Source of the DNA: Candidatus Poribacteria bacterium
Lineage (GTDB): Bacteria; Poribacteria; WGA-4E; JAJDTR01
Length of the DNA stretch: 64,000 bases
NCBI GenBank assembly: GCA_028820655.1
Contig: JAPPIK010000006.1
Coordinates: 303,154-367,153 of the forward strand
Direction of reading: 5' to 3'
Under the pieces are notes generated by a model. The model saw nothing but the letters and a program-made list of their open reading frames with translations, was not told the DNA's origin and ran no database searches. A program made the position numbers and the translations under genes. This document shows positions 34,251-52,095 of this stretch, one piece after another. Numbering within the stretch: position 1 is the stretch's first letter; each line of letters opens with the position of its first letter.

Positions 34251-34485
34251 GATTGAATACCTCCTTAAACGTGAAAACCAAAAAACTCTTCAAAAGGGCC
34301 ACAGCCCTAGAGGATCGTTCTATCACTGAAGAATCAAACACTTGCACAATGATAGAGATAAACATGAACCGTAAGATTTTTCCCAACTTCTTTGTGGATT
34401 TACGGCGAGCACCGGTAATCTTATTATTCCGTTCCCAATAGCATTGTTACTCTTCAGTTTTTTTGCGCGAAGAGGAATATTAACC

Positions 34486-36597
34486 CTATTTCCCGACCAA
34501 CATCTTCCGCGTGGCGCTAAAACCACCCGCGTTCAGCCTATAGAAGTAGACTCCATTTGTTACAGTCTCTCCCATCTCATTCCGCCCGTCCCAATACGCA
34601 GCACGGCTTCGACTGCGATAGGCACCGGCGGGTTGGTGTCCCACTGCCAACGTTCGAACCGCCTGCCCTTTCATATCGTAAATCGTCAAGGTTACCTCCG
34701 CCGGATTCTCCAATTGATACGGTATCCACGTCTCCGGATTGAACGGATTCGGGTAGTTTGGAAGTAGAGCCGTTTGCACCGGTGTCAAAGCCGTTGCCGA
34801 CTGTGAAAGTTCGGCTGTTTGCATCATGCTGTTAATCGCTATGTTTTTGACTCCGCCCCATGTGGTGAGGTACACAAACTCCCACAGCAAAATCGTGCCG
34901 TCCCAGCTCCCACTAACAAGAGTATTCCCACCGGGAGAGAAGGCTAAAGACGAGACATCGTACGTATGGCCTTCAAGTATTCGCATGCTTTCGCCGGTGC
35001 GCGCATTCCAGATTCGAATCGTATCGTCGTAACTCCCACTGGCGAGTATGGGGACCTCGGGGAAGAATGCAACGCAAGAAACCCCGTCTGTATGCCCTTC
35101 CAGTATATGCAATTGGTCCCCTGTACGGGCATTCCAAATCCGAATCGTGTTATCGTTGCTTTCAATCCAAGGCTCAGGTTCTCCGCTTCCGCTTGCCAAA
35201 AATCTCCCGTCATGCGAGAACGCCAAGGAAGTAATCCCAGCCAGTTGTCCGGAAAGCGCCTGCCTATGTTCGCCAGTATGAGCATCCCACAGTCGAATTG
35301 TCTTGTCCTGACTCCCGCTGGCAAGCGTAAATCCGTCGGGAGAGAAAACCACGGACGTAACACCACTCCTATGTCCAAAAAGTGTCTGCTTGAGTTCGCG
35401 AGTACGGACATCCCACAATCGAATCGTGCCGTCCAGACTCCCACTGGCTAGCGTGTCTCCATCGGGCGAGAAAGCTGCGGAGTAGACTTGCTCATGATGC
35501 CCCACAAAGGGTCGATTGTACAATCCAGTGCGTCTGTTCCAGAACTGAACTAATCCGCCCCTATTCCATGCCATGGTGCTCCCATCGGGAGAAAACGCTA
35601 TGCAGCGTAAGCTGCTTGTAAAAGTCTCGGGTGACCCCAAGTGTTCTCCGGTGCGAGCGTCCCACAGGCGAACCATACTGTCCCAGCCCCCTGCACTTGC
35701 AAACGAATCACCGTCCGGAGAAAAAGCGACGTAGATGTCCCGCCAATTCCAATGATCTTGAACGGTGCGTAAAATCTCTCCGGTGCGAGCGTCCCAAAAT
35801 CGAATCACGCTTTCGCCGCCCTGCGATTGTGCGACGGCGATAGTGGAACCATCGGGGGAAAACGCTACGGCTTTGACCCTATCCCGGCGACCTTCAAGGG
35901 AAGGTACGGCTCCCACGACATCGCCCCACGTGCGAATCGTATCGTCAGAACTCCCGCGGGCGAATATAGGTCCACTTTGCAAGAACACTATAGGACTTAT
36001 CCAATGCCGGTGAAGTCCAACAGTAAGAGTAAATGAGGTTTCCCCAGTAGACGCATCCCACAGATGTACTTTGTTGTTCCTACTCCCAAATTGAAGACCT
36101 TCAAGCGTACGTAAGGATTCCCCGGTGTGGACATCCCACAGGCGAATCATCTTGTCCCTGCCCCTACTGGCAAGCGTTAACCCATCGGGCGAGAACACTA
36201 TGGATTTGACACTATCTGTATGCCCCTCAAGGGTGTGGATGCCTTTTCCGGTACGGACATCCCATAATCGAATCGTAGTGTCCCAGCTCCCACTGGCAAG
36301 CTTGGTTCCATCGGGTGAGAAAGCAACAAAAGTCACAAAACTCTCATGTCCGGTGAGCAGGTTGACTTCGGCGCCGGTGGTTGTGTCGTAAAACCAAATA
36401 CCGATGCTGCTTGCTACCGCTAACCGGGTGCCGTCTGGAGTATACGCAATATTGCCGGATATCCAACCCTTGCCAAGGCGCGATTTGACGCCTTCGGGCA
36501 AACCCAATAGGGTATAGTCTTGGGCAAAACCAGACTCTAGGAACAAAACAGAACCGATCAGCAGGTTAAACTGGATAAACTTTGATGGGCTTATCAT
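34486..36597 (-). CDS. secreted WD40 double-propeller protein with T9SS/FlgD-Ig-like C-terminal domain (array member A, subfamily I)
   Basis: Signal-like FNLLIGSVLFLESGFA, box QDYTLLGLPEGVKSRLGKG, many units such as GHTDSVKSIVFSPDGLTLAS..RDKMIRLWDVHTGE, CTD LLPNYPNPFNPETWIPYQL...AAYWDGRNEMGETVTNGVYFYRL...RKMLVGK. Confidence 0.9.
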   Translation of the reverse strand: MISPSKFIQFNLLIGSVLFLESGFAQDYTLLGLPEGVKSRLGKGWISGNIAYTPDGTRLAVASSIGIWFYDTTTGAEVNLLTGHESFVTFVAFSPDGTKLASGSWDTTIRLWDVRTGKGIHTLEGHTDSVKSIVFSPDGLTLASRGRDKMIRLWDVHTGESLRTLEGLQFGSRNNKVHLWDASTGETSFTLTVGLHRHWISPIVFLQSGPIFARGSSDDTIRTWGDVVGAVPSLEGRRDRVKAVAFSPDGSTIAVAQSQGGESVIRFWDARTGEILRTVQDHWNWRDIYVAFSPDGDSFASAGGWDSMVRLWDARTGEHLGSPETFTSSLRCIAFSPDGSTMAWNRGGLVQFWNRRTGLYNRPFVGHHEQVYSAAFSPDGDTLASGSLDGTIRLWDVRTRELKQTLFGHRSGVTSVVFSPDGFTLASGSQDKTIRLWDAHTGEHRQALSGQLAGITSLAFSHDGRFLASGSGEPEPWIESNDNTIRIWNARTGDQLHILEGHTDGVSCVAFFPEVPILASGSYDDTIRIWNARTGESMRILEGHTYDVSSLAFSPGGNTLVSGSWDGTILLWEFVYLTTWGGVKNIAINSMMQTAELSQSATALTPVQTALLPNYPNPFNPETWIPYQLENPAEVTLTIYDMKGQAVRTLAVGHQPAGAYRSRSRAAYWDGRNEMGETVTNGVYFYRLNAGGFSATRKMLVGK

Positions 36598-36626
36598 ATG
36601 ATGTTCCGTTCCGACGAAGGTGAAAT

Positions 36627-38927
36627 TTATTTCCCGACCAACATCTTTCGTGTGGCGGTGAAATCTCCCGCGGACAGCGTGTAGAAATAGACGCCGTCCG
36701 CCACCGTCTCGCCCATTTCATTCCGTCCGTCCCAATAAGCTGCACGATCCCGGCGTTGATAAACGCCTGCGGGCTGGTGTCCTACTTCCAGCATTCGAAC
36801 CGCCTGCCCAATCATGTCATAAATCGTCAAGGTCACCTGCGCCGGATTCTCCAATTGATACGGTATCCACGTCTCCGGATTGAACGGATTCGGGTAGTTT
36901 GCAAGGAGTGCCGTCTCCATCGGGATAGAAAGAGCGGATAAGCGTGAACGATTGAACCGTTGCCTCTTGCGATCTACGACGCTTGTGTGCTTAATATCTG
37001 CCCACGAGGTGAGGCGCCTGAACTCCCACAGCAATATCGTACTATCCCGACTCCCACTGACCAGCGTATTACCATCAGGAGAGAACACCACGGAACTCAC
37101 CCAGTCGGTATGGCCCTTGAGGATTTGCATGCTTTCGCCGGTGCGGGCAGCCCAAATTCGAATCGTATTGTCGTAACTCCCACTGGCGAGTACGGGTGCA
37201 TCGGGTGAGAATGCGACACAGGAGACTGAGGTGGTATGTCCCTCCAAAATATGCAGATGTTCGCCGGTACGGACATCCCAGATCCAGATTGTCTTGCCGA
37301 TGCTTTCGGGATAAGGTCCCCCGCTAGCGCTTGCCAACATTTCCCCGTCGTGCGAGAACGCTACGGACCTAATCTCATCCAGGTGTCCGGTTAAGGTCTG
37401 CCGGTGTTCTCCAGTGCGTCCATCCCATAGGCAAACCGTTTTGTCCACACCCCCACTGGCAAGCGTAAAGCCATCGGGGGAGAAAGCCACGGAATTAACG
37501 CCGCCCTCGTGCGCATGAAACGTCTGAAACTGTTCGGGAACACGCACATCCCACAATCCAATCGAGCCGTCCCAGCCCCCGCTGACAAGCGTGCCTCCAT
37601 CGGGAGAGAAAGCGATAGATCTGTCGCCCCCGGAGTGTCCCCCTATGTTTCGGAATCGGAGCACTCCGGTGCGTACATCCCATGGCCGAATTATGCCTCC
37701 GTCATTCCAGACAAGCGTGCGCCCATCGGGCGAGAACACTATGGAACGCACGAGGTCAGTAGATGTCGCGGGTCTACCGAGGAGTTCGCCGGAGCGGACA
37801 TCCCACAGACGCACCATGCTATCCCAGCCCCCGACGCTTGCAAGCGTGTATCCGTCGGGTGAAAGAGCCACATAGACAGAGCCATTTGTCGCATCCCAGT
37901 GCCCCGAAAGAGAGTGTCGGATCTTTCCGGTGCGAGCGTCCCATAATAGAATCACCGTTTCGTCATATCCCTTCATTGCAAAGGCAAGTGCGGAACCATC
38001 CGGCGGAAACGCTACGTGTTCGTTCTTATGTAGGAGATTTTTAAGCGATGGCGCGGCTTCTACCGCGCGGTTATACGGTGAATGAATCGTACTGCGCATA
38101 CCATCTCGGACAAGCGTCGATCCGTCGGGCAAGAACACTGAAGAACTTAACCAGCGCTGATGGCGTTCAGGAGCAGTTACAGGTTCACCGGTATCAATAA
38201 CCCACAGACGAATCTCTTCCTCTCTCCAACCGGCAAGCGTCGATCCATCGGGCGAAAACGTGATGGCAATGACACTGTCTCGACGCTGCGCAAGGGTGTG
38301 GGTGCCCATGCCTGTACGGACATCCCACAATTGAATGGTGTAGTCCCAAGCCGCGCTGGCTAACTTGGTTCCATCGGGCGAGAACGCTATAGCTTCGACG
38401 CTGCGTGTATGCCCCTCAAGCGTATGAGTGCCTTTACCCGTGCGGACATCCCACAATCGAATCGTATCGTCCCAGCCCAAGCTGGCAAAATTGGTTCCAT
38501 CAGGTGAGAACACCATGATGTCGACTCCACCTGTATGCCCCTCAAGGGTGTGGATGCTTTTACCTGTACGGACATCCCACAATCGAATCGATCTGTCCCA
38601 GCAGACGCCGGCGATCTTGGTTCCGTCCGGCGAGAATGCTATTGAATTAACCTGCTTCGTGTGCCCGATAAGCAAATTGATTTCTGCCCCGGTCTCCACA
38701 TCATGAAGCCAAACACCGGCGCTGCACGGCACCGCTAACACGGTTCCCTCCGGGGAGAACATAATGTCACCAGATATCGAACCCTTCCCAACGCGCGCTT
38801 TTGCGCCCTCGGGCAAACCCTGTCGAGTGTAGTCTTGCGCATAGCTCGAGCTAAGAGACAGAGCGGCAACGACCGAAATGATAATTGGCACGAACAATCG
38901 AAAATTTCTCATCTGACAATATCCCAT
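36627..38927 (-). CDS. secreted WD40 double-propeller protein with T9SS/FlgD-Ig-like CTD (member B, subfamily I)
   Basis: Same architecture as A. Signal-like FVPIIISVVAALSLSSSYA, box QDYTRQGLPEGAKARVGKG, CTD LLANYPNPFNPETWIPYQLENPAQVTLTIYDMIGQAVRML. Alternative start at 38912. Confidence 0.9.
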   Translation of the reverse strand: MGYCQMRNFRLFVPIIISVVAALSLSSSYAQDYTRQGLPEGAKARVGKGSISGDIMFSPEGTVLAVPCSAGVWLHDVETGAEINLLIGHTKQVNSIAFSPDGTKIAGVCWDRSIRLWDVRTGKSIHTLEGHTGGVDIMVFSPDGTNFASLGWDDTIRLWDVRTGKGTHTLEGHTRSVEAIAFSPDGTKLASAAWDYTIQLWDVRTGMGTHTLAQRRDSVIAITFSPDGSTLAGWREEEIRLWVIDTGEPVTAPERHQRWLSSSVFLPDGSTLVRDGMRSTIHSPYNRAVEAAPSLKNLLHKNEHVAFPPDGSALAFAMKGYDETVILLWDARTGKIRHSLSGHWDATNGSVYVALSPDGYTLASVGGWDSMVRLWDVRSGELLGRPATSTDLVRSIVFSPDGRTLVWNDGGIIRPWDVRTGVLRFRNIGGHSGGDRSIAFSPDGGTLVSGGWDGSIGLWDVRVPEQFQTFHAHEGGVNSVAFSPDGFTLASGGVDKTVCLWDGRTGEHRQTLTGHLDEIRSVAFSHDGEMLASASGGPYPESIGKTIWIWDVRTGEHLHILEGHTTSVSCVAFSPDAPVLASGSYDNTIRIWAARTGESMQILKGHTDWVSSVVFSPDGNTLVSGSRDSTILLWEFRRLTSWADIKHTSVVDRKRQRFNRSRLSALSIPMETALLANYPNPFNPETWIPYQLENPAQVTLTIYDMIGQAVRMLEVGHQPAGVYQRRDRAAYWDGRNEMGETVADGVYFYTLSAGDFTATRKMLVGK

Positions 38928-38944
38928 ACCGGCGAATCGAAATC

Positions 38945-41227
38945 CTACTTGCCGACCAGCATCTTCCTCGTGGCGGAAAAATCACCCGCAGTCAATGTGC
39001 AAAAATAAACCCCGTTCGCCACCGTTTCTCTATTTTGATTGCATCCGTCCCAAAACGCCGCACGCTCGCGGTTCCGATACATCCCGGCGGGTTGATGTCC
39101 CATATCCAGCGTCCGAACCGCCCGTCCCTTCATGTCATAAATCGTCAGCATCACTTCTGCCGGTTCTCCCAACTGATAAGGTATCCACGTCTCCGGATTG
39201 AACGGATTCGGGTAGTTTGACAGGAGTGCCGTATCTATCGGGATGATAAGATTGGCTGGAGGCGAAGCGCCCGGCAATTGCCTAGTTCCGGCAGAGACCG
39301 ATTCTCTCTTAATGTCGCCCCATGCTGTGGCACGCATTAAATCCCATAGTAATATTGTGCCATCAGAACTTCTACTGACAAGCGTGGCGCTGTCGGGAGA
39401 AAACGTAATGGATCGAACCCACCCCGCATGTCCTTCTAAGGTCCGCAGGTGTCTGCCAGTAGAAACATCCCACAAACGAACCGTATTGTCCAAACCTCCA
39501 CTGGCAAATATAGATCCATCCGGCGAAAACGCTACAGATAGAATTCCCTTCGCGTGCCCCTTAAGGGTTTGAAACTGCTGCCCGGTACGGGCGTCCCAAA
39601 TTCGGATCGCGTTGCTGCCCCATCCGCCTCCACTGGCAAGCGTCTGTCCATTCGATGAAATCGCCACACACCTAATCCCCTCTATATTCCCTCCAAATAT
39701 CTGCAAGTGGTCACCGGTGGAAACATCCCATAAACGAATTGTACCGTCGTCACTCCCACTGGCAAGCTTGAATCCATCAAGGGAGAAAGCTATTGAACTC
39801 ACTCCATCCGTATGCCCCCTAAGGATGTACAGCACCTCCCCGGTGCGCGCATCCCACAGACGAACTGTTCCGTCCCCATTTCCACTGGCAAGCGCGGAAC
39901 CATCGGGCGAGAAATCAATGGTGTTGATCCAACCCCTATTTCCCTTCAGAGTTTTTGTGCGTTCTCCGGTACGGGTGTCCCACAGACGAATCATTCGATC
40001 CTCGCTCCCGCAGGCAAGCGTAAATCCATCGGGGGACAACGCAACGGATCCGACCCAGCCTATATTTCCCACGATTGCGCGTCTGTGTTTTCCCGTGTGT
40101 ACATCCCACAGATGAATCGTGTTGTCGTGATCTGAAGTGACGAGGGTTGGTCCTCCGGGCAAGAACGCGACGGAACGAGGATAATCTGCATGTCCCTCCA
40201 GTGTATGAAGGTGTTCTCCGGTACGGGTGTCCCACAGACGAACCGCGTCATCGTCACCCGCACTGGCGAGCGTAGAGCCATCGGGTGAGAACGCCACCGA
40301 ATCAACCCCCCAATTATGTCCCACTAGGGTATGCGTCTGTTTCCACGTACGGGTATCCCACAGCCGTACCGTGTCATCATACCAGCCTCCCGCGCTCGCA
40401 AGCATGTCTCCTTCGGGCGAGAAGGCCACCCAACCAACCGTCGCCCTATGTCCTTCAAGGGTTTGCACATGTTCCCACGTGCCGGTGTCCCACAACTCAA
40501 TTCTTCCGGGCGGACTCGACGCTCCGGCTCCGCCCAGAAGCCTTCCGGCAGCAAGCGTGAGTCCGTCAGGGGAGAACGCGACAACGAAGTTTCCCCCAGT
40601 TTGATAATCACGCATTGTTTTTATGGCATCTCCGGTGCGCACATCCCATACACGGAGGGTTGCGTCTGATGCTGCACTGGCAAGCGTGAAGCCATCGGGC
40701 GAAAACGCCACGGACTGGAGCCTATCTTCATGGCCAGTAAGAGTGTGCAATCCCTCTCCCGTGCGGGTATCCCACAGCCGAATGGTTCTGTCCCAAGCTC
40801 CACTGGCAAGCGTGAAACCGTCCGGGGAAAATGCAACGCAATTAATACCGCCGACATGTCCTTCGAGCGTCCGCACGTGTTTCCCGTTACCCGCATCCCA
40901 CAATCGGAGACCATCATAATACCCAACGGCGAGCGTGGCGCTATCAGGCGAGAACGCCACGGAATATGCAATGCGTGTATGCCTTGCGATCAGGTTTACC
41001 TCCGCGTAGGTGTGCGCATCATACAGCCAAATGCCGATGTAACTCGTGACTGCGAGCCGCCGACCATCCGGGGAATAGGCGACATTGCCAGTTATCCCGC
41101 CTTTACCGAGCCTCGCTTTTGCGCCCTCGGGCAACCCCCATCGGGTAGAGTCCTGGGCAAAACTGATTCGCAGAGCCAAAGTGAAAACGATCAAAAGCCA
41201 GAGTTTGAAAAGCCGAGATTTTCTCAT
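38945..41227 (-). CDS. secreted WD40 double-propeller protein with T9SS/FlgD-Ig-like CTD (member C, subfamily II)
   Basis: Start taken at MRKSRLFKLWLLIVFTLALRISFA (the listed ORF extends to 41299). Box QDSTRWGLPEGAKARLGKG, about 14 WD units, CTD LLSNYPNPFNPETWIPYQLGEPAEVMLTIYDMKGRAVRTL. Confidence 0.9.
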   Translation of the reverse strand: MRKSRLFKLWLLIVFTLALRISFAQDSTRWGLPEGAKARLGKGGITGNVAYSPDGRRLAVTSYIGIWLYDAHTYAEVNLIARHTRIAYSVAFSPDSATLAVGYYDGLRLWDAGNGKHVRTLEGHVGGINCVAFSPDGFTLASGAWDRTIRLWDTRTGEGLHTLTGHEDRLQSVAFSPDGFTLASAASDATLRVWDVRTGDAIKTMRDYQTGGNFVVAFSPDGLTLAAGRLLGGAGASSPPGRIELWDTGTWEHVQTLEGHRATVGWVAFSPEGDMLASAGGWYDDTVRLWDTRTWKQTHTLVGHNWGVDSVAFSPDGSTLASAGDDDAVRLWDTRTGEHLHTLEGHADYPRSVAFLPGGPTLVTSDHDNTIHLWDVHTGKHRRAIVGNIGWVGSVALSPDGFTLACGSEDRMIRLWDTRTGERTKTLKGNRGWINTIDFSPDGSALASGNGDGTVRLWDARTGEVLYILRGHTDGVSSIAFSLDGFKLASGSDDGTIRLWDVSTGDHLQIFGGNIEGIRCVAISSNGQTLASGGGWGSNAIRIWDARTGQQFQTLKGHAKGILSVAFSPDGSIFASGGLDNTVRLWDVSTGRHLRTLEGHAGWVRSITFSPDSATLVSRSSDGTILLWDLMRATAWGDIKRESVSAGTRQLPGASPPANLIIPIDTALLSNYPNPFNPETWIPYQLGEPAEVMLTIYDMKGRAVRTLDMGHQPAGMYRNRERAAFWDGCNQNRETVANGVYFCTLTAGDFSATRKMLVGK

Positions 41228-41258
41228 TGAATGATGTTCCTTACGGAAAACGTGAGTT

Positions 41259-42247
41259 TCACTTGCCGACCAGCATTTTGCGCGTGGCAGAAAAATCACC
41301 TGCAGTCAGCCTATAAAAATAGACGCCATTCGCCACCGTCTCGCCATGCCGATTACGCCCGTCCCAATACGCGGCACGATCCCGGATCTGATAAACACCG
41401 GCGGGTTGGTGCCCTACTTCCAGCGCCCGAACGGTCTGTCCCTTCATATCGTAAATCGTCAACGCCACCTCTGCGGGATTTTTCAGTTGATACGGCATCC
41501 ACGTCTCCGGGTTGAACGGATTTGAGCAGTTTGCGAGGAGCGCAGTTTCTGTCGACGCTAAAAGTGCGACTGAAGGTGAGAGTTCCGGCAATTGCCTCGT
41601 CAAATCGGTAGCCGCCGCTCGCTTCGCCTCACCCCACGTCCTTGAACGCATCAGGTCCCACAATAAAATTGTGCCATCGTTGCTCCCACTTGCCAGCGTT
41701 AGCCCATCGGGAGAAAACGCTACGGAACCCACCCACCAGTATGTCCCTCAAGTGTCCACAGACGTTCTTCGGTGTTAGCGTCCCATATGCGAATCGTGTC
41801 GTCCGAACCTCCGCTCGCAAGCCTGGCTCCATCGGGAGAAGACGCCACGGACGTGACAGCGCCGTGGTGCCCCACAAGAGCGTGCGTGGCTTTCGCTGTA
41901 CGGAGATCGCAGAGACGAATTATCGCATCCCGATTGCCGCCGCTAGCAAGCACCGAACCATCGGGCGAGAAAGCTACGGCATACACCTCTTCCGAATGAC
42001 CGGTGAGAAGGCTGACTTCGGCACCTGTGTTCGCGTCGTAGAGCCACACGCCAATGCTACTCGCGACGGCAAGCCTCGTCCCGTCAGGGGAATAGGCAAT
42101 CTTGCATGTGATCTCTCCCTTTCCGAGCCGCATCTTGGCGCCCTCGTGCAATTCCCATCGGGTATAGTTTTGTGCAAAACCGCCCTCCAAGAAGAAAACA
42201 GAAACGATCAGCAGGTAAAACTGGAAAAACTTCGATGGTCTAATCAC
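41259..42247 (-). pseudogene. collapsed, frameshifted WD40/CTD minigene
   Basis: GTG at 42247 gives VIRPSKFFQFYLLIVSVFFLEGGFAQNYTRWELHEGAKMRLGKG plus about four WD units, ending EGHTGGWVP and a stop. One base out of frame it continues (W)VGSVAFSPDGLTLASGSNDGTILLWDL... plus a complete CTD (ORF 41259-41732). The upstream part of the listed ORF 41720-42679 only overlaps gene D. Confidence 0.7.
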
Positions 42248-42276
42248 AAGATTTCCCTTTTCAACGAAGGCGAAAT

Positions 42277-44571
42277 TCACTTTCCGATCAACATTTTGCC
42301 GGTGGCGGAAAAACCATCGGCGATGAGTGTACAGAAATAGACGCCATTTACTACCATCTCGCCCTGCTGATTGCGCCCGTCCCAATACGCGGCACGATCC
42401 CGACTCCGATATACGCCGGGGAATTGGTGTCCCATCTCCAGCGTTCGAACGATCTGTCCAGTCATATTTAAAATCGTCAAGGTGACATCTGCCGGTTTCC
42501 TCAACTGATAAGGTATCCACGTCTCCGGATTGAAAGGATTCGGGTAGTTCGGAAATAGAGCCGTCTCCATCGGGATAATGGGAACCGCCGGTAGTGAGAG
42601 TTCTACCGATTGCCTCGTCCCGCCGACAATTTCCAATCGTTTTATCTCGCCCCACGTCGTGAGGCGCCTCACGTCCCATAGCAAGGTTGTGCCATCGCCA
42701 CTCCCACTGACAAGCGTGGTTCCGTCGGGCGAGAAGGTCACGAAACGTACCGACCCCATATGTCCTTCAAAGGTCTGCAGGTGTTCACCGGTGAATACAT
42801 CCCATAGTCGAACTGTACGGTCATAGCTTCCGCTGGCGAGCGTTGAACCGTGGGGTGAAAACGCGACGCAATCGACCGAGGCGGTGTGACCTGCAAGCGT
42901 CGCCAAGTGTTCCCCGGTGCGCGCATCCCACAGAAGTATCGTGTCATCCCGGTAACCGCCGGCACTCGCCAACGTATTCCGATCGGGAGAGAACACCACG
43001 GATGAAACGCTCGCTGAATGCCCTTCAAGGATGTGCAGCTGTCTTCCTGTGCGGACATCCCACAGCCGAATTGTCTTATCATCGGACGCCCCGCCACTGG
43101 CAAGTGTGACCCCGTCGGGGGAAAACGCAACGGAACTGACACCATCCGTGTGTTCTCTAACGGAATACAACTGCTTGCCACTCTGTACATCCCACAGGCG
43201 AACTAGCTTGTCCCCACCGCCGCTAGCGAGCGTGAACCCATCCGGTGAGAAAGCGATAGCGCCGACCGAAGCCTTATGTCCATTCAGAATCTCTATGAGT
43301 TCTCCGGACCGTGTGTCCCATAGACGAATCATTAGGTCTCTGCTTCCGCACGCGAGGGTGAGTCCATCCGGGGTCAGCGCAACGCGCCCGCCGACCCAGC
43401 CTATATTTCCCACGATAGCGCGCCTGTGTGTTCCAGAGTGAGCATCCCACAGATGGATGGAGTTGTCGATACGACCAGTGACATGCACCGGTCCATCCGG
43501 CAAGTACGCGAAGGCACGAGGATAATCTGCATGTCCCTCCAGTGTGTGAAGGTGTTCTCCGGTGCGGGCATCCCACAGGCGAACCGTGTCATCGTGATCA
43601 CTCGCACTGGCGAGCGTGAGACCATCGGGCGAGAACGCCACGGATTCAATCCACCGACTACTCCCCACTAGGGTGTGCGTCTGTGTCCAAGTGCGGGTAT
43701 CCCACAATCGCACCGTGTCGTCATACCATCCTCCCCCGCTGGCAAGCGCGTTTCCATCGGACGAGAAGGCCACGCAACCCACCGTCGCCTTATGTCCCTG
43801 GAGGGTCTGCACATGTTCCCACGTGCGGGTATCCCACAGCTTGATCTCGCCGGGAGGACTCGGCTCGCCGGCCCCGCTCGAATCTCTTGCTCCGGCAAGC
43901 GTAAGTCCGTCCGGGGAGAACGCCGCCATATAACCTCCCCAGCGCGAAGCTTCGCCCAGCGTATGTATGGCTTCTCCGGTGCGGACATCCCATAGTCGAA
44001 TCGTGTCGTCGTCACTCCCGCTCGCGAGCGTGATGCCGTCGGGCGAGAACGCTACGGACCGGACATCATCTGTATGCCCTTCAAGCGTGTGTAGACTCAC
44101 CCCGGCGCGGGCATCCCATAGTCGAATTGTTTTGTCCCTACCACCACTGGCGAGCGTGATGCCGTCGGAGGAAAACGCCACGCAATGAACACGGCCGACA
44201 TGCCCTTCGAGTGTGCGCTCGTGTTTCCCGGTACCCCCATCCCACAATCGGAGGGAATCATAATACCCAACGGCGAGCAGGGAGCTATCGTGCGAGAACG
44301 CTACGGAGTATGCCCGGCTCGTATGCCTTGCGATCAGGTTTGTCTCGGCGTAGGTACTCGCATCATACAGCCATATGCCGATGTTGGTCGCAACCGCGAG
44401 CCGCCGACCATCCGGGGAATAGGCGATATTTCCAGATATGGCGCCTTTACCCAAGCGCGCTTTGGCGCCACCGGGCAAACCCCATCGAGTATAGTCTTGG
44501 GCAAAACCAGCTCGCAGAGCCAGAGAGAAAACGATCAAGAAGCTAAGTTTGAGAAACCGAGATTTTCGCAC
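42277..44571 (-). CDS. secreted WD40 double-propeller protein with T9SS/FlgD-Ig-like CTD (member D, subfamily II)
   Basis: GTG start. MRKSRFLKLSFLIVFSLALRAGFA, QDYTRWGLPGGAKARLGKG. Colinear with member C (e.g. GWYDDTVRLWDTRTW.QTHTLVG, GHADYPR). CTD LFPNYPNPFNPETWIPYQLRKPADVTLTILNMTGQIVRTL. Confidence 0.9.
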   Translation of the reverse strand: MRKSRFLKLSFLIVFSLALRAGFAQDYTRWGLPGGAKARLGKGAISGNIAYSPDGRRLAVATNIGIWLYDASTYAETNLIARHTSRAYSVAFSHDSSLLAVGYYDSLRLWDGGTGKHERTLEGHVGRVHCVAFSSDGITLASGGRDKTIRLWDARAGVSLHTLEGHTDDVRSVAFSPDGITLASGSDDDTIRLWDVRTGEAIHTLGEASRWGGYMAAFSPDGLTLAGARDSSGAGEPSPPGEIKLWDTRTWEHVQTLQGHKATVGCVAFSSDGNALASGGGWYDDTVRLWDTRTWTQTHTLVGSSRWIESVAFSPDGLTLASASDHDDTVRLWDARTGEHLHTLEGHADYPRAFAYLPDGPVHVTGRIDNSIHLWDAHSGTHRRAIVGNIGWVGGRVALTPDGLTLACGSRDLMIRLWDTRSGELIEILNGHKASVGAIAFSPDGFTLASGGGDKLVRLWDVQSGKQLYSVREHTDGVSSVAFSPDGVTLASGGASDDKTIRLWDVRTGRQLHILEGHSASVSSVVFSPDRNTLASAGGYRDDTILLWDARTGEHLATLAGHTASVDCVAFSPHGSTLASGSYDRTVRLWDVFTGEHLQTFEGHMGSVRFVTFSPDGTTLVSGSGDGTTLLWDVRRLTTWGEIKRLEIVGGTRQSVELSLPAVPIIPMETALFPNYPNPFNPETWIPYQLRKPADVTLTILNMTGQIVRTLEMGHQFPGVYRSRDRAAYWDGRNQQGEMVVNGVYFCTLIADGFSATGKMLIGK

Positions 44572-44620
44572 CGAATGATGTTCCTTGCCGCGATATAGAA
44601 CCTACGGGGTTACGGCACAC

Positions 44621-44660
44621 GGGGATCTCTATCGCACTCGCTATCCACTCGCTTGATTCT
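44621..44660 (-). repeat. repeat family B copy inside the WD40 array (between members D and E)
   Basis: GGGGATCTCTATCGCACTCGCTATCCACTCGCTTGATTCT. This copy accounts for the only long (97 nt) intergenic gap in the array. Confidence 0.7.
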
Positions 44661-44668
44661 ACAACTTT

Positions 44669-46771
44669 TTAGTTGCCGACCAACATTTTGCGCGTGGCGG
44701 TGAAATCTCCCGCAGACAGCGTGTAGAAATAGACGCCGTTCGCCACAGGTTCTCCCAGTTCATTCCGCCCGTCCCAATATGCGGCGCTGTGCGTGTTTTG
44801 ATACATCCCGGCGGGTTGATGGCCTACTGTCAGTGAGCGAACTGCTCGCCCCTTCAAATCATATATCGCCAGCGTCACATCTGCCGGTTTCTTCAACTGA
44901 TACGGTATCCATGTCTCCGGATTAAACGGATTCGGGTAGTTTGGCAGAAGCGCCGATTCCAGCGGCGTTAAATTCGTTGGCGGCGGTAAAAGTTTGGGTG
45001 TGTGCATAATGCCATCAGCCGCCGTGTACTTGATATCGCCCCATGTAGTAAAACGCCTGAATTCCCATAGCAAAATCGTGCTGTCCCAACTCCCACTAAC
45101 CAGCGTGTTACCGTCGGAGGAGAATGCTAGAGACGTGACGGCATTCATGTGACCTTCAAGTGTATGTATGTTTTTACCGGTGCGTGCATCCCAAATTCGA
45201 ATCGTATTGTCGTAACTCCCACTGGCGAGTATGGGGACTCCGGGGTAGAATGAAACACTGGAAACCCCATCCGTATGTCCCTCCAGTGAATGCAGATGGT
45301 CGCCCGTACGGGCGTCCCAAATCCGAATTGTATTATCGTCGCTTCCACTAAATGGCCAACGTCCGCTGCTGCAGCTTGCCAGCAGTTTTCCGTCATGCGA
45401 GAACGCGACGGTAACAATCTCATCCATTTGACTGGAAAGCGCTCGAATGTGTTCCCCGGTGCGTGCATCCCATAGACGAACCGTTTTGTCCCTGCCCCCG
45501 CTGGCAAGCGTCAAACCGTCAGGGGAGAAAGCCACGGAAGTCACCCCGCCCTTGTGCGCAAAAAAAAGCCGCTTGTTTTCGCGAGCACGGACATCCCACA
45601 GTCCAATCGAGGTGTTGCTACTCCCGCTGGCGAGCGTGGCTCCGTCGGGAGAGAACGCGATAGAATCGACGCTCGAAGAGTGTCCCCCAAAGTCCGGGTA
45701 GCGGAACACGCCGGTGCGCGCCTCCCACGACCGAATTCTTCCACCTTCGGCCCAGACGAGTGTGCTTCCATCGGGGGAAAACGCCATGGACGACACGGAA
45801 GTCGCAAAAGTCTCGGGCCTGCCGAGCAGTTCGCCGGTGCGGGCGTCCCACAGACGAACCGTACTGTCATAGCTCCCGGCGCTCACGATGGTGTGTCCGT
45901 CACGTGAAATAGCGACATGTATGTCTCTTATGTTATTTCCAGCGCTCCAGTGACCTGTAAGGTAGTATAAAAACGCCCCGGTGCGAGCGTCCCAAAATTG
46001 AATCTCACTTTCGTCACCCCACCATGTGTGCCAACGCCCCAGTGCAATGACAAGCGTGGAACCGTCGGGGGAAAAAGTGGCGGCTTTTATCTTTTCCAAT
46101 TCGCCTTTAAAGGACGGTACGACATCCGTGACACGGAGGTTCGGTTTCCTGTCTGACGCGAATACGATAGAACTTAGCCAATGCCGGCGATGTTCAGCAG
46201 AAAGAGTAAATGCGGTTTCCCCGGTATCGGCATCCCGCAGGCGAACCTCGTTGTTCCTACTCCCTAGCTGAAGGCCTTCAAGCGTTTGCAGGGCTTCACC
46301 GGTGCTTACATCCCAAAGTTGTATTATCTTGTCCCTGCTCTTACTTGCAAGTTTAGAGCCGTCGGGCGAGAAGGCTATGGCGTCGATACTAGCTGTGTGC
46401 CCCGCAAGGGTGCGGGTGACTTTCCATGTGAGGACATCCCACAGACGAACCGTTCTGTCCCGGCTTCCGCTGGCAAGCCGAGATCCATCGGGTGAGAATG
46501 CTACGCAACCAACCGCCTCCGCATGCCCGACAAGCAGCTTGATTTCAGCCCCGGTCCCCACATCGTACAGCCAGACACCGGGGTAGCACGGCACCGCCAA
46601 CACGGTTCCTTCCGGAGAGAACGCAACATCGCCTGATATCCAACCTTTACCGAGCCGCATCTTTGCGCCCTCCGGCAAGCCCCACCGGGTATAGTCTTGG
46701 GCGATACCATGTTGTGAAAACAGAACGGTAACCAGCCAAAAACCGAACGTGAACAACTGCGACATTTTCAT
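44669..46771 (-). CDS. secreted WD40 double-propeller protein with T9SS/FlgD-Ig-like CTD (member E, subfamily I)
   Basis: MKMSQLFTFGFWLVTVLFSQHGIA, QDYTRWGLPEGAKMRLGKG. Colinear with member A, including the degenerate middle (EGLQLGSRNNEVRLRDADTGETAFTL). CTD LLPNYPNPFNPETWIPYQLKKPADVTLAIYDLKGRAVRSL. Confidence 0.9.
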   Translation of the reverse strand: MKMSQLFTFGFWLVTVLFSQHGIAQDYTRWGLPEGAKMRLGKGWISGDVAFSPEGTVLAVPCYPGVWLYDVGTGAEIKLLVGHAEAVGCVAFSPDGSRLASGSRDRTVRLWDVLTWKVTRTLAGHTASIDAIAFSPDGSKLASKSRDKIIQLWDVSTGEALQTLEGLQLGSRNNEVRLRDADTGETAFTLSAEHRRHWLSSIVFASDRKPNLRVTDVVPSFKGELEKIKAATFSPDGSTLVIALGRWHTWWGDESEIQFWDARTGAFLYYLTGHWSAGNNIRDIHVAISRDGHTIVSAGSYDSTVRLWDARTGELLGRPETFATSVSSMAFSPDGSTLVWAEGGRIRSWEARTGVFRYPDFGGHSSSVDSIAFSPDGATLASGSSNTSIGLWDVRARENKRLFFAHKGGVTSVAFSPDGLTLASGGRDKTVRLWDARTGEHIRALSSQMDEIVTVAFSHDGKLLASCSSGRWPFSGSDDNTIRIWDARTGDHLHSLEGHTDGVSSVSFYPGVPILASGSYDNTIRIWDARTGKNIHTLEGHMNAVTSLAFSSDGNTLVSGSWDSTILLWEFRRFTTWGDIKYTAADGIMHTPKLLPPPTNLTPLESALLPNYPNPFNPETWIPYQLKKPADVTLAIYDLKGRAVRSLTVGHQPAGMYQNTHSAAYWDGRNELGEPVANGVYFYTLSAGDFTATRKMLVGN

Positions 46772-46803
46772 CTGATGATTACCTTTTGCCGCGAATTTGA
46801 ATC

Positions 46804-49101
46804 TTACTTGCCAACCAACATCTTTCGCGTGGCGGAATAATCGCCCGCGGACAGTGTGTAGAAATAGACGCCGTTTGCCACCGTCTCGCCCAGCTCATTC
46901 CGTCCGTTCCAATACGCCGCTTGCGCCCGACTCCGATAGGCGCCCGCTGATTGTTGTCCCAATACCAGCGTCCGAACTACCTCCCCATTCATGTCATAGA
47001 TTGCCAACACTACGTCCGCCGGTTTCGCCAACCGGTACGGTATCCACGTCTCCGGATTGAAGGGGTTAGGGTAGTTTGGCAGCAGCGCCGATTCAATCGG
47101 GACAATGGGAGCGGCTGACGGTGAAAGCTGTACCGTCTGCTTAGCCGCATCGACAAACGCCGGTCGTTTTATGCCGCCCCAAGTTGTGGGCTGCCTCACA
47201 TCCCACAGGTGAACCGTGCCGTCTTCGCTCACGCTAGCCAGGGTTGAACCGTCTGGCGAGAAAACCACGCTGGTGACCTCCAGCCAGTTCCAGTTAAAGG
47301 TCTTCCTGATTCCCCCGCTATGCACATCCCGCAATCGAATCGCGGCGTCTCGGCTCCCGCTGGCAACCATGTCCCCGCGGCGGGAGAACGCAATAGCGCT
47401 GACATCATCCATATTGTAATCAAGGATGCGCAGATTTTTCCCGGCGTGCACATCCCACAATCGTATCGTATTGTCTCGACTCCCGCTGGCAATCATGGAA
47501 CCGTCCGACAGAAACAGTACGGAAATGACATCGTCTGTATGTCCCTGAAGCGTCCCCAAGTTTTCTCCCGTACGCACGTCCCACAAACGAATCGTGTCGT
47601 CCAGGCTTCCACTGGCAAGTGTAAATCCGCTCTGAGAAAATGCTATGGACGAAACCGCGTTCACATGCCGTCCGAGCGTATGTACTCTATTTCCCGTGCG
47701 CACATCCCACACCCGAATTGTGTTGTCCCAACCGCCGCTGGCGAGCGTGCGCCCGTCGGGGGAGAACGCCACCGAATACACCTTACCGGCATGCGCCTCA
47801 AGCGTATGTTGCCCTTCTCCGGAGCGGATATCCCACAGCCGAACCGTCCCGTCGAATTGTCCGCCACCGCTGGCAAGGGTATTCCCATCAGGGGAAAACG
47901 CCACACAACTCACTCCGTGCGTATGTCCCTCAAGTGTTCGCTTGTGCTCCAAAGTTCGCGCATTCCACACGCGAATCGTGCCGTCACCGCTGCTGTGTGC
48001 AAAGAGATGTCCTTCGAGCGAAAATGCAACAGAGCTTTCCACGTACGAATTTCCGTCACGATACCCCTTAACGGTATGCTTGTGTTCCCGATTGCGCACG
48101 TCCCAAAAACGAAGCGTACCATCCTCACTTGCGCTGACAAGCGTGAGCCCGTCGGGCGAGATCGCGATTGAAGTCACCGTACCGGTATGTCCCGTTAGCG
48201 TCCCAATGTGTTCTCCTGTGCGCCAATTCCACACACGTATTGTCTCGTCCCGACTCCCGCTGCAAAGTACCTGTCCGTCCGGGGAGAACGCTACCGAAGT
48301 TACTACGCTCACATGCCCCTCAATCGCCTGCAGGTGCTCACCCGTGCGCGCATCCCACAAACGCACCGTGGGGTCAGCCCAATCGCCGGCGCTGGCAAGG
48401 GTTGAACCGTCTGGCGAGAACGCCAACCAATTGGCTTCATCCGAATGCCCCTCAAGCGTATGCAAGCGCTCGCCCGTGTGCGCATTCCATAAATGTACCG
48501 TGTTATCATTCCAACCGTCAGCGCTGGCAAGGGTTGAACCGTCAGGCGAGAACGCCACCGCATTCACCGAGATTCTGTGTCCTTCAAACGCGTCCAGGTA
48601 CCCACCCGTACCGACATCCCACAAACTTATTGAGTCGTCATGCTCTGAGCCGATACGATTTCCGCTAGCGAGGGTAGAGCCGTCGGGGGAAAACGCCAGG
48701 CAAGTTATATACAGCGCATTGACTTCGATCGTTCGCCGGTGCTCACCCGTGTAGGCGTCCCACAGACGCATTGTAGGGTCGTCCCTGCCTCGTCCGCCGC
48801 TTGCAAGCGTGGCGCCGTCCGGAGAAAACGCGACGGAACCGACCCGCGCCGTGTGCCCGCTGAGCAGGCCGAGTTCGGCGCCGGTATTGGCGTCATAAAT
48901 CCAAATACCGGCAGTGCTCGCGATCGCGAACCGAGTCCCGTCGGGTGAATAGGATATATTACTGGTTATCTCGCCCTTCCCGAGGCGCATTTTCGCACCT
49001 GTGGGCAGTCCCCATCGCGTATAATCTTGTGCGAAACTGCTAGGTGCAAACAGAACAGCAGCGAGCAACAAGAAGAATATGAACCCCCATTCACTTTTCA
49101 T
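46804..49101 (-). CDS. secreted WD40 double-propeller protein with T9SS/FlgD-Ig-like CTD (member F, subfamily III)
   Basis: Start taken at MKSEWGFIFFLLLAAVLFAPSSFA, whose ATG forms an ATGA overlap with the stop of member G. Box QDYTRWGLPTGAKMRLGKG, about 14 WD units, CTD LLPNYPNPFNPETWIPYRLAKPADVVLAIYDMNGEVVRTL. Confidence 0.9.
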   Translation of the reverse strand: MKSEWGFIFFLLLAAVLFAPSSFAQDYTRWGLPTGAKMRLGKGEITSNISYSPDGTRFAIASTAGIWIYDANTGAELGLLSGHTARVGSVAFSPDGATLASGGRGRDDPTMRLWDAYTGEHRRTIEVNALYITCLAFSPDGSTLASGNRIGSEHDDSISLWDVGTGGYLDAFEGHRISVNAVAFSPDGSTLASADGWNDNTVHLWNAHTGERLHTLEGHSDEANWLAFSPDGSTLASAGDWADPTVRLWDARTGEHLQAIEGHVSVVTSVAFSPDGQVLCSGSRDETIRVWNWRTGEHIGTLTGHTGTVTSIAISPDGLTLVSASEDGTLRFWDVRNREHKHTVKGYRDGNSYVESSVAFSLEGHLFAHSSGDGTIRVWNARTLEHKRTLEGHTHGVSCVAFSPDGNTLASGGGQFDGTVRLWDIRSGEGQHTLEAHAGKVYSVAFSPDGRTLASGGWDNTIRVWDVRTGNRVHTLGRHVNAVSSIAFSQSGFTLASGSLDDTIRLWDVRTGENLGTLQGHTDDVISVLFLSDGSMIASGSRDNTIRLWDVHAGKNLRILDYNMDDVSAIAFSRRGDMVASGSRDAAIRLRDVHSGGIRKTFNWNWLEVTSVVFSPDGSTLASVSEDGTVHLWDVRQPTTWGGIKRPAFVDAAKQTVQLSPSAAPIVPIESALLPNYPNPFNPETWIPYRLAKPADVVLAIYDMNGEVVRTLVLGQQSAGAYRSRAQAAYWNGRNELGETVANGVYFYTLSAGDYSATRKMLVGK

Positions 49102-51476
49102 GCGGTTGTTCTTCCCGCGATGAGGCTCTCTTCGCACCGTTTTCTCCTTTTTCGCCGGGCTGGCAGAGTCGCCGCTAATTTCACAAGATTCATGCGGCGT
49201 GTGCTTCGAGATTCCCCCGCCTGCAACGTGTAAAAATACAGACCGCTCGAAACCGACTCGCCCGCATCATTCCGCCCATCCCAATAGGCGGCTTGAGACC
49301 GAGAAAGATAATCGCCCTCGGGCTTTTCGCCGAGGTTTAGGGTCCGCACCTGACGACCCGACGCATCGTGAATTCGAATGTCTACATGGGCTAACTCGCT
49401 CAGTCGATACGGAATCCATGTTTCCGGGTTGAACGGGTTGGGGAAGTTCGGCAACAGCGCAGTCTTCTTAATCTGTCCCAAGAAAACCGGTTTGGGAAGA
49501 AGGAGTGCAGTGACATCCCAAATCTGCGGCGACGGATATGTGAAACGATTGAGGAGCGCCGATCCGTCCTGGGTCACATCCCAATATTCAGGCAGGCTTG
49601 GGTGTTCAAGCGGTTGGTTGGCGCGCCAATTCCAAATCTGCAGACCATCCTTTCCGTTCACAAAAAGATAGCGTCCGTCTGCGGTGAAATGTGCAGGACC
49701 TCCGTCTGTAATCCAAAATATCCGTTCCGCAGAATGTTTCTCGAGTCGCCATCCCACAACTGATCGGTACGATGCAAATACCAGCATCGGAGGAGTCGCA
49801 TGCGGATGAAATACGAGGTTCGCGCCATAGGTATAATGCAGGGGCATTGCCGGAATCCACGCATAGCGATAACTATACCCGTTTTCGCCCTGTTCCCACA
49901 GGTGTAATCGGGTGTGCTGGTCCGATGCGGCAAGATAACGGTCGTCTTCACTGAACGCAATGAAGAATCCCGGGTTGATTCCTAGCAACTCGCGCCGGTG
50001 CGGTCGATCAACGTCTACTACGATCATTGCGTTATTTCGATAAGCCGCCGTCGCAATGCGGTTTCCGCGGTTACTAAACGTAAGCCCCAGCGCCGCCATA
50101 GCGTCGGGAAGATACGTCTGCAGTTCACCGGTATGTATATCCCGAACTTCCGTGCCGTCTGCGTGCAACCCTACCGCGAATCGACGACTATCCGCAGAGA
50201 TGGCTAACGTCATTCGATAGTTCTGTGCCCCCTCGAATACAGTTTTCCGCAACGAGCCCGATGGCACATCCCAAATTTTAATCAACGTGTCATTTACCTC
50301 CACGAGCGATCTGCCGTCCGGGCTGAGCTTACTCCAACCACCGCCGCCGTAATCTGCCCATAGTCTTAACTGTCGATTCTGTTTCATGTCCCAAAGAACG
50401 GCAACTTGACCGTGATACTGAAGAATCGCACGGCTTTCATCGGGAGATATTGAGACGTGGCTGAGGGCGGCCGGTTCCGCACGGATTTCGTTAATCAACG
50501 CGCCTGTCTCAACGTCCCAGACGCGCAGTCGGTCATTGAACGAATTCGTATATGCCGGAGACGGCGTCCTGGTCCCCACGTACAGCCGTCGGCTGTCTCG
50601 GCTGAAAAAGAGTTCGAACACTTCACCCGCATGGCGAGCTTGGACATCCCCATTCCGCAACGTTCCCACCAGTTGCCGCGTACCGGCTTTCCACAGGTAG
50701 ACCTTCGTCGACTCCACCTCGGTCGTGGCAATCCACTGTCCATCGGGGCTGTAGACGACCTTGGTCACCCAGCCGTCATGACCTTCCAAATGCCCGGCAA
50801 GCTTTCGTGTCTCAAGATCCCAAATCTCGGCATCCGGACGTATCGATCCGACCGCAAGAAATCGATCGTCGGGACTGAAGGCTATGGAGAAGACGAACGG
50901 CGGCCGGTCATTGCACCTCGAACTGCTCCAGCCACCGCCAGATCGATGATAACACTCAAGGATAGGTCTCCTCTTGTCTTCCAACCGGCCAACCCATTCT
51001 CCCATCTCCCAATCCAGCAAGAAAATCTCGTCTGTCCCGCCATTTATCGCGAGGAGCGGCTGTTTCCCGCCGAACGCAACGAGAAACGGATAATCCAACA
51101 CACCTCCCGACCATGATCGGACAGATTCAAATTCCCATTCGCCGAGTTTCTTTTGTTCGTTTATGTTCCAGAGTTCGACCATGTCTCTTCTCTTGATAGC
51201 AAGCTGCCTCCCATCCGGACTGACTGTCACGAACCTGAAGAACTCCGAGCTACCCGCGAAGTTCGCCAACACCGCGTCGTTGTCCGGATCCACGATCTCC
51301 ATATGCTTTGACCTCACGCGAAGCATATTGCCGTCCGGTAGGAACCTGAGTTGGCGAATTCCCTCTTTCCCAATCGTTCCAACCGGCTCCATCGCCGCCG
51401 CTTCAGCAAGTATGGAAAACCACGAAAAGAATACGACGATAGATGTTCTCATTTTTGTGTCCGAGATAACGTGCAT
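49098..51476 (-). CDS. secreted divergent beta-propeller (WD40-like) protein with the same T9SS/FlgD-Ig-like CTD (member G)
   Basis: Signal-like MRTSIVVFFSWFSILAEAAA (alternative start 51452). Repeats are much less canonical (e.g. FSIAFSPDDRFLAVGSIRPDAEIWDLETRK). CTD LLPNFPNPFNPETWIPYRLSELAHVDIRIHDASGRQVRTL...AAYWDGRNDAGESVSSGLYFYTL, followed by an extra basic tail LAATLPARRKRRKRCEES... Confidence 0.8.
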   Translation of the reverse strand: MHVISDTKMRTSIVVFFSWFSILAEAAAMEPVGTIGKEGIRQLRFLPDGNMLRVRSKHMEIVDPDNDAVLANFAGSSEFFRFVTVSPDGRQLAIKRRDMVELWNINEQKKLGEWEFESVRSWSGGVLDYPFLVAFGGKQPLLAINGGTDEIFLLDWEMGEWVGRLEDKRRPILECYHRSGGGWSSSRCNDRPPFVFSIAFSPDDRFLAVGSIRPDAEIWDLETRKLAGHLEGHDGWVTKVVYSPDGQWIATTEVESTKVYLWKAGTRQLVGTLRNGDVQARHAGEVFELFFSRDSRRLYVGTRTPSPAYTNSFNDRLRVWDVETGALINEIRAEPAALSHVSISPDESRAILQYHGQVAVLWDMKQNRQLRLWADYGGGGWSKLSPDGRSLVEVNDTLIKIWDVPSGSLRKTVFEGAQNYRMTLAISADSRRFAVGLHADGTEVRDIHTGELQTYLPDAMAALGLTFSNRGNRIATAAYRNNAMIVVDVDRPHRRELLGINPGFFIAFSEDDRYLAASDQHTRLHLWEQGENGYSYRYAWIPAMPLHYTYGANLVFHPHATPPMLVFASYRSVVGWRLEKHSAERIFWITDGGPAHFTADGRYLFVNGKDGLQIWNWRANQPLEHPSLPEYWDVTQDGSALLNRFTYPSPQIWDVTALLLPKPVFLGQIKKTALLPNFPNPFNPETWIPYRLSELAHVDIRIHDASGRQVRTLNLGEKPEGDYLSRSQAAYWDGRNDAGESVSSGLYFYTLQAGESRSTRRMNLVKLAATLPARRKRRKRCEESLIAGRTTA

Positions 51477-52095
51477 GGTTTTTCGTTATACCTGCGCAAA
51501 TGCTATGCCAAGCGCAAATATCGTGGAGAAACCTGTCATTACGTAGACTTCTTGCGCGATGCGGCGCATTTGCGGGGTTCAGACAGTTCAGTTTTTGGAC
51601 AGGATTGTTCAGAAATGGGGACTCGGTTAGCTCGTTTCTGTGCATGTGTAGAATTTAGCGACCGATTTACCTTCCATACTGTTCTCCACTGTTTCACGTT
51701 TACCTTCTCCTTAGCGCACTTTTTGAGGTCAAATCCTCCCCGCTGACCACTGGTCGCGGACGCTGCTTTCCCCTTCAATTGCACTTGATCTTATTCGGAT
51801 TTTGTTGTATACTCCCTTCAAACGCTGTTTCACACGATATCTCCTCGAAGGTCGACAGGTAAATCCGACAATCCTCCCGTGCAGCAGGCAAGGTATTGTC
51901 CTAACCGCCGTATTCGCATAAAGCCGCGCGCTGGGTGATTAGAACACGCTGTGAAATGGCTCAAATACATAAGGATTTCTATGAATATCCGATTGCTCTT
52001 GAGTCGCTGATGTTGTCGTCATGCGTTCAATTGTCTCTGAACACGATTCACGCGCATGACAGCGATTCAAACATTCAAATTGGAGGGTCGAGACG

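Follow-up and report, generated by a model that had tools for sequence, protein, structure and literature searches.

Introduction

Eukaryote-like proteins of Candidatus Poribacteria, "especially WD40 repeats", carry the domain TIGR04183, as stated in the accessible passages of Kamke et al. (2014, PLoS One, PMC3909097), and for their secretion pathway these passages say that it "remains to be revealed", since no Por structural genes were found. Here we describe a tandem array of genes for proteins of this type on a contig of a Candidatus Poribacteria bacterium (GenBank JAPPIK010000006.1, assembly GCA_028820655.1). The window that was analysed is the whole stretch of 64,000 nucleotides at positions 303,154 to 367,153 of this contig; all coordinates below are those of the window, and the array lies at 34486-51476. 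Its proteins resemble those of Kamke et al. in the phylum and in the combination of WD40 repeats with TIGR04183, and with both found in one protein of a poribacterial host they belong to the same class. The 2014 report gave domain counts from single-cell genomes, and its searched passages do not mention tandem arrays, an N-terminal box, double propellers or gene gain and loss.

A preliminary description of this DNA, made from the letters alone, could name no characterised system with such an organisation. This no longer holds: proteins of this type have been on record from Poribacteria since 2014, which makes the array a good illustration of something known and not a new system. What the present locus adds is the arrangement of the genes in tandem, with copies gained and lost, a conserved box at the N-terminus, a disordered tether and the finding that the C-terminal domain (CTD) takes a strictly terminal position on many types of cargo. 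We think it rather likely that the locus belongs to a sponge symbiont of the Candidatus Poribacteria and encodes, in tandem, a family of WD40 proteins with two propellers that are exported, a family that evolves through duplication and loss.

Type A cargo proteins of Bacteroidota's type IX secretion system (T9SS), such as the gingipain RgpB and those of Flavobacterium johnsoniae, share with the array proteins a terminal domain of about 80-95 residues, predicted in the array to be a beta-sandwich, and a TIGR04183 score above the cut-off; where the cargo has a Sec signal the array proteins have a signal-like N-terminus, and the modelled fold of their CTD matches solved CTDs. The array differs in that its host belongs to a phylum without a demonstrated T9SS, in that the CTD is nearer to FlgD_ig and in that the cargo is a WD40 double propeller.

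Like the array proteins, PDB entry 2YMU and cyanobacterial NB-ARC/NACHT-WD40 proteins have nearly identical WD units built on a conserved scaffold, and the cyanobacterial proteins are cytoplasmic. According to Pfam the named cyanobacterial NB-ARC/NACHT matches carry NTPase domains, whereas the proteins in the window have a signal-like N-terminus and the CTD instead. The WD repeats of the fungal HET-E/NWD proteins also combine a conserved scaffold with few hypervariable positions per repeat, as in the array; they undergo concerted evolution, repeat shuffling and positive selection inside cytoplasmic NLR-like proteins. In contrast, the array shows no sign of recent conversion, and its ratios of nonsynonymous to synonymous substitution (dN/dS) lie below 1.

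The ankyrin, leucine-rich repeat (LRR) and TPR eukaryote-like proteins of sponge symbionts (Robbins et al. 2021, PMC8163846) are likewise an expansion of repeat proteins thought to mediate interaction with the host, with functional evidence for ankyrin proteins only. The route by which they are delivered is unknown according to the same study, which found WD40 proteins neither enriched in sponge metagenome-assembled genomes (MAGs) nor among laterally transferred genes.

Organisation of the array

The whole array is located on the minus strand, and its sequence points to eight related genes in a row for WD40 proteins with two propellers, a sorting-type domain at the C-terminus and predicted export. 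In the order of transcription (G, F, E, D, X, C, B, A) the units are as follows.

49098-51476, minus strand: gene G, 792 aa, first transcribed; signal-like N-terminus, divergent beta-propeller region, CTD, 27-aa extension
46804-49101, minus strand: gene F, 765 aa from the ATG at 49101; signal, N-terminal box, 14 WD repeats, linker, CTD
44669-46771, minus strand: gene E, 700 aa; signal, N-terminal box, about 13 WD repeats (some degenerate), CTD
42277-44571, minus strand: gene D, 764 aa, GTG start; signal, N-terminal box, 14 WD repeats, disordered linker (residues 636-683), CTD (residues 684-762)
41259-42247, minus strand: copy X, a broken eighth paralog, from a GTG at 42247 to a stop at 41259
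38945-41227, minus strand: gene C, 760 aa from the ATG at 41227; signal, N-terminal box, 14 WD repeats, CTD
36627-38927, minus strand: gene B, 766 aa; signal, N-terminal box, 14 WD repeats, CTD
34486-36597, minus strand: gene A, 703 aa; signal, N-terminal box, 13 WD repeats, CTD
32718-33200, minus strand: relic copy with the last WD blade, the linker, the CTD and an in-frame stop; 58% identity to the CTD of A (tblastn)

Before refinement of the start codons the open reading frames (ORFs) of A, B, D, E and G had the extents listed, while those of C and F reached from 38945 to 41299 and from 46804 to 49137. The seven long ORFs of the preliminary description are thus present, all of them on the minus strand. 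It had missed the eighth unit, X, between C and D and the decayed ninth at 32718-33200, and its gaps of 17-97 nt are right except for the one between C and D, which contains X. With X included, the spacers in transcription order are -4, 32, 97, 29, 31, 17 and 29 nt. The overlap of stop and start in an ATGA (49098-49101) holds if F begins at the ATG at 49101. Because the spacers are short, we suggest that the array is co-transcribed from upstream of G, where the following region is the likely promoter location, by its position only.

51477-52095: intergenic region of 619 nt between G and a divergent inositol-1-phosphate synthase gene, likely array promoter

A scan of 33000-52500 for consensus promoters and terminators gave counts not above those in shuffled sequence and was uninformative. 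A common leader before several starts had been described, and we found it at three of them.

44575-44586, minus strand: leader AAGGAACATCAT, which contains AGGA, 3 nt upstream of the D start
41231-41242, minus strand: leader AAGGAACATCAT, exact 12-mer, 3 nt upstream of the C start
36598-36609, minus strand: leader AAGGAACATCAT with one mismatch, immediately before the A start

The AGGA is a Shine-Dalgarno-like core. The leader is exact at C and D and nearly so at A; over the whole window the number of copies with up to 2 mismatches is not above chance, and for these three best copies only the position, 0-3 nt before a start codon, is meaningful.

Relatives of the array and assembly

The window is 100% identical to the ENA scaffold ROBB21-1_SAMN13943214_METAG-scaffold_18, which has 377,662 bp, and its label together with the cited BioProject suggests that the scaffold comes from the sponge metagenomes of Robbins et al. 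2021. The part from E to A recurs with 5 mismatches in 13.8 kb on a contig of the NCBI MAG GCA_028823835.1 and with 2 mismatches on a metagenome contig from a second sample; the frameshift in X is present on both, and protein A is found exactly on three contigs.

A pattern scan with one genome per species yielded 77 related loci, nearly all from Candidatus Poribacteria and a few from Latescibacterota, and tandem runs of 2-5 family genes are found in other poribacterial loci. On the closed poribacterial chromosome OZ244829.1 (6.15 Mb) the syntenic array is larger and extends over about 40 kb with at least 12 genes. Its first part contains copies like D (66%), E (75%) and C (70%), two like G (75% and 71%) and one like F (77%). 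Beyond an unretrieved gap follow three copies, a SnoaL-like gene and then three more copies. Since D-, E-, C-, G- and F-like copies are all present there, the subfamilies are older than the split of the two genomes; the order and number of copies differ between them. The related loci and the synteny with OZ244829.1 place the DNA in Poribacteria, in agreement with the earlier guess of a sponge symbiont. The SnoaL-like gene in the array of the relative (6650-7213 of the fetched locus, L081) is 87% identical to one in the window:

33687-34250, minus strand: SnoaL/NTF2-like gene, 187 aa, directly downstream of A, with a lipoprotein-type signal (AICILSC before GD); SnoaL_4 E 3.5e-5

The encoded protein may be a partner of the array.

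That the assembly has spuriously expanded one or two genes might be suspected, since two short-read contigs break within gene E. This explanation can be regarded as effectively refuted: a collapse or spurious expansion is not credible because the paralogs share just 73-79% identity in their DNA, the gene order and the X frameshift are repeated on three contigs with 2-5 mismatches, and a larger syntenic array lies in the closed chromosome of the relative, a contig with "1077x" in its name. The array is real.

Architecture of the proteins

In proteins A-F an N-terminus that resembles a signal peptide is followed by a conserved box, 13-14 WD repeats, a linker of about 45 disordered residues and, at the end, a CTD of about 95 residues with a beta-sandwich fold. 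A four-part architecture had been described for every product, and this applies to A-F; G lacks the N-terminal box and has weak repeats. The hidden Markov model (HMM) scan of the proteins bears out the WD40, FlgD_ig and TIGR04183 assignments made by eye. For WD40 (PF00400) the E-values in A-F are 1e-86 to 1e-131, in 8-13 stretches. A repeat HMM built from the window counts 14 repeats in F, D, C and B, as had been expected for all members, 13 in A and E and about 9 weak ones in G.

At the N-termini, K/R residues and a hydrophobic core of 12 residues are found together with an (S/G)-x-A site at residues 24-30, followed by Q, where the cut is predicted between A and Q. By this heuristic they look like signal peptides, as had been described, and in the model of D residues 2-18 form a helix. 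A profile of the N-terminal 85 residues matched 124,155 proteins at E<=1e-3 among 1.84 billion representatives, which is no measure of family size: the profile matches WD repeats generally, because it includes the first blade. For many proteins of 356-1900 aa the best match was at residues 1-85. The homologs have no recorded names except "hypothetical protein" for one Gemmatimonadota cluster.

The AlphaFold model of D has a predicted local distance difference test score (pLDDT) of 81 and a predicted template modelling score (pTM) of 0.70. Following the helix at 2-18 it shows about 57 strands within residues 36-633, a low-confidence linker at 636-683 and a beta-sandwich at 684-762. Its top match in Foldseek is 2ymu_A, a highly repetitive 14-repeat propeller (43% identity, E 8.5e-52), and the next matches are tandem double propellers including Aip1 (1nr0), with "two seven-bladed beta-propeller domains". 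The model thus supports two seven-bladed propellers plus a beta-sandwich, and the two propellers with an Ig-like tail that the preliminary description proposed are also what the model predicts.

The best sequence matches without a CTD would invite the reading that the array encodes WD40 proteins for signalling in the cytoplasm, comparable to the cyanobacterial NB-ARC/NACHT-WD40 (STAND) proteins. The top sequence matches include NB-ARC WD40 proteins of Fischerella and Nostoc, and the best structural match is the repetitive 14-repeat propeller 2ymu. However, all copies have a hydrophobic signal-like N-terminus and the terminal CTD, and no NTPase or effector domain is present; the domain HMM scan gave no match to NB-ARC, NACHT or AAA in A-G. 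We therefore disfavour a cytoplasmic role and regard it as very improbable.

The C-terminal domain

All nine CTD-bearing ORFs that were scanned reach 23.2-36.1 bits for TIGR04183, with a cut-off of 23. For PF18962 the single listed case, the C-terminal part of X, has 18.7 bits against a cut-off of 27. FlgD_ig (PF13860) gives 36.6-42.9 bits in the array proteins. The NCBIfam equivalogs for FlgD and rod modification reach 23-37 bits, in the Ig part only, with cut-offs of 230-383. A full-length FlgD hook cap protein is ruled out, as the equivalogs are far below their cut-offs and the remainder of each protein is WD40.

Compared with the PDB by sequence, the CTD matches FlgD (7eh9) with E 6.6e-7 and a Por CTD with E 0.023. 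Modelled alone (pLDDT 86) it has the FlgD Ig domain as its best fold match, and lower-scoring Foldseek matches are PorZ, PorU, SprA-PorV-bound T9SS substrate CTDs, 8gl8_D, 8glk_D, 8glj_D, the RgpB CTD and the mirolase CTD. Because both FlgD Ig and T9SS CTDs match, the former better, the modelled fold is compatible with a T9SS CTD and does not discriminate it from an Ig domain of the FlgD type.

Proteins A-F all end in ...KMLVGK, and G is an exception through its 27-aa extension. In the fetched loci outside the window (75 loci, nearly all from Poribacteria), the CTD ends 0-3 residues before the stop in 119 of 120 near-full-length matches, which occur once per protein in ORFs of 112-3117 aa. The cargo of these CTDs includes LRR + cohesin + dockerin proteins, an S8 subtilase with LDL-receptor-B and CARDB, YWTD propellers and a C39-like peptidase. 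A strictly terminal domain on such varied cargo fits the pattern expected of a sorting or anchoring signal, unlike that of a generic Ig domain.

The LRR + cohesin + dockerin proteins with the same CTD were found in other Poribacteria (loci L055, L057, L060 and L066), and they hint at possible cellulosome-like surface assemblies in this phylum.

Variation and turnover of the copies

The proteins C and D are 67.5% identical and A, B and E are 59-62% identical to each other, F shares about 50% with the rest and G about 30%; the CTDs of A-F are 65-84% identical. These values agree with the subfamilies A/B/E, C/D, F and G that had been recognised by eye, and together with the comparison to the OZ244829.1 array they bear out growth by duplication. 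Diversification by gene conversion had been proposed as well, and for recent events we reject it: no identical DNA tract between paralogs exceeds 62 nt, and the one of this length lies within the invariant CTD motif.

In 54 well-scoring repeats the WD scaffold is conserved, and entropy peaks at positions 4-6 and 8 (after GH), 17, 24 and 26 (flanking the turn Asp) and 38-40, with W, R and Y frequent at position 24. Residues that follow GH or surround the turn Asp lie on the top face of WD40 propellers, the usual side for ligand binding. Between the genes of the window and their orthologs in OZ244829.1, dN/dS is 0.55 at the variable positions, 0.21 in the scaffold and 0.27 outside the repeats; the variable positions evolve faster than the scaffold.

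In X about ten blades are deleted and a frameshift lies at the deletion junction (about 41722-41735); what remains are the signal, the N-terminal box, about four blades besides the last one, and the CTD. Its sequence is identical on the two other contigs that span E to A (L002 and L003), and it is probably a pseudogene. The relic at 32718-33200 corresponds to genes that are intact in OZ244829.1, where three intact genes follow the SnoaL gene. G has a WD40 match of E 1.6e-17 in one stretch, no N-terminal box and CTD scores of 36.6 bits for FlgD_ig and 23.2 bits for TIGR04183. It has lost its stop: the two orthologs in OZ244829.1 (75% and 71% identity) end in ...RRMNLVK and a stop codon, where the window reads AAA TTA. 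Readthrough (49098-49180, minus strand) adds 27 basic residues past the CTD, up to the ATGA overlap. This extension is predicted to bury the C-terminus of the CTD, and the ATGA overlap with F is a by-product of the lost stop codon.

As X, the relic and the stop loss of G show, the family evolves through duplication, divergence and loss, and copies are gained and lost rapidly, as seen from the array with its broken members and from the larger counterpart in the relative. The same broken copies, X deleted and frameshifted among them, together with the larger array of the relative, could be taken to mean that the array is a decaying remnant with little current function. We regard this as improbable, since six ORFs (700-766 aa) have remained intact, conservation is strong in the signal, in the N-terminal box and in the CTD, and ortholog dN/dS values of 0.21-0.55 indicate purifying selection.

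Export and possible function

For the exported, still functional family that we favour, the following course can be proposed. The intact proteins A-F would be made with a cleavable Sec signal peptide, which their sequence suggests is cut after (S/G)-x-A before QDY. The mature protein would fold as two 7-bladed propellers, with the N-terminal box as a segment of the first blade. The disordered linker of about 45 residues would bear the beta-sandwich of the T9SS type A/FlgD-Ig class as a tag for sorting or anchoring to the outer membrane surface or the cell exterior; the HMM membership, the strictly terminal position and the presence on many unrelated types of cargo point to this role. The exposed propellers might then bind ligands on the host, on particles or on other bacteria via the few variable positions per blade.

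Several observations weigh against this course. The signal-peptide calls rest on a heuristic and not on a trained predictor. TIGR04183 is barely above its cut-off in D (23.6) and G (23.2), and in both sequence and fold the CTD resembles the FlgD Ig domain more closely than the solved T9SS CTDs. No T9SS component is present in the 64-kb window or among the genes repeatedly found beside members of the family across about 80 loci. According to the accessible passages of the two sources, poribacterial single-cell genomes contained no Por structural genes (Kamke et al. 2014, PMC3909097), and the T9SS is limited to Bacteroidetes (one review, PMC11611037). Positive selection is also not supported at the variable repeat positions, where dN/dS is below 1 (0.55).

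The recurrent neighbours in the approximately 80 loci are oxidoreductases, enolase-family enzymes, sulfatases, LRR proteins, DUF6785/6784, extracytoplasmic function (ECF) sigma factors and NtrC-type regulators, and none of them resembles secretion machinery. The fetched loci contain no SprA-like candidate, because no ORF of at least 1500 aa without a CTD was found in them. The searchable literature on a T9SS in Poribacteria gave nothing beyond Kamke et al. 2014 on machinery recognising the CTD, and few lineages among the sponge MAGs encode known secretion systems (Robbins et al. 2021, PMC8163846).

Possibly, the proteins are exported by Sec and retained in the periplasm or the cell envelope, with the Ig-like CTD as a structural or binding module, Poribacteria having no T9SS. 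The lack of T9SS genes in the window, in the neighbourhoods and, as far as the accessible passages tell, in the genomes of Kamke et al. would fit this, as would the closeness of the CTD to the FlgD Ig domain. However, the CTD is strictly C-terminal and single-copy on diverse cargo, including enzymes and cohesin/dockerin proteins expected to be extracellular, every copy passes TIGR04183, and a long disordered tether precedes it. On balance retention in the envelope seems unlikely to us, and we keep to sorting to the surface or the exterior as the preferred explanation.

More speculatively, Poribacteria without a canonical T9SS might export or anchor many varied proteins with a CTD of the FlgD-Ig type by an undescribed pathway, and the WD40 arrays might serve as fast-turnover surface receptors for sponge or particle ligands; we consider this doubtful as yet.

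The locus displays the poribacterial WD40 class clearly, with a predicted export signal, two propellers, a flexible tether and a sorting-type domain common to other proteins of extracellular type. Which machinery recognises the CTD in a phylum without a known T9SS is a question raised in 2014, and closed poribacterial chromosomes now make a computational test possible. Eukaryote-like repeat proteins abound in sponge symbionts, and their route to the host is a wider question (Robbins et al. 2021).

Other features of the window and of related loci

A gene of about 670 aa, the size of a membrane protein, with DUF6785 and DUF6784 lies near WD40-CTD genes in ten loci (L008, L010, L012, L013, L014, L017, L018, L040, L043 and L056); its recurrence may be mere synteny among related genomes. 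In the window, a histidine kinase with TPR repeats is followed by an NtrC-type sigma-54 response regulator (24634-28087, plus strand), and NtrC-type regulators are found near family genes in five other loci.

Two further proteins of the window have propeller-type repeats without the CTD, namely a 490-aa ORF (28174-29646, minus strand) with beta-propeller repeat matches below the cut-off (TIGR04275) and a 362-aa NHL-repeat protein (16045-17133, plus strand).

A non-coding direct repeat of about 200 bp is present at 33413-33614 and 58800-59001 (plus strand, 85% identical). It has no Rfam family match and was found, among the fetched loci, only in copies of the window region. A bacterial large signal recognition particle RNA (RF01854, 186 bits) lies at 1306-1572 (plus strand) and adjoins dnaX (2095-3891) and recR (4294-4899). 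The window also encodes a 572-aa protein with a C-terminal NYN nuclease domain (22637-24355, plus strand) and a GH38 alpha-mannosidase-like protein of 1026 aa (60885-63965, minus strand).

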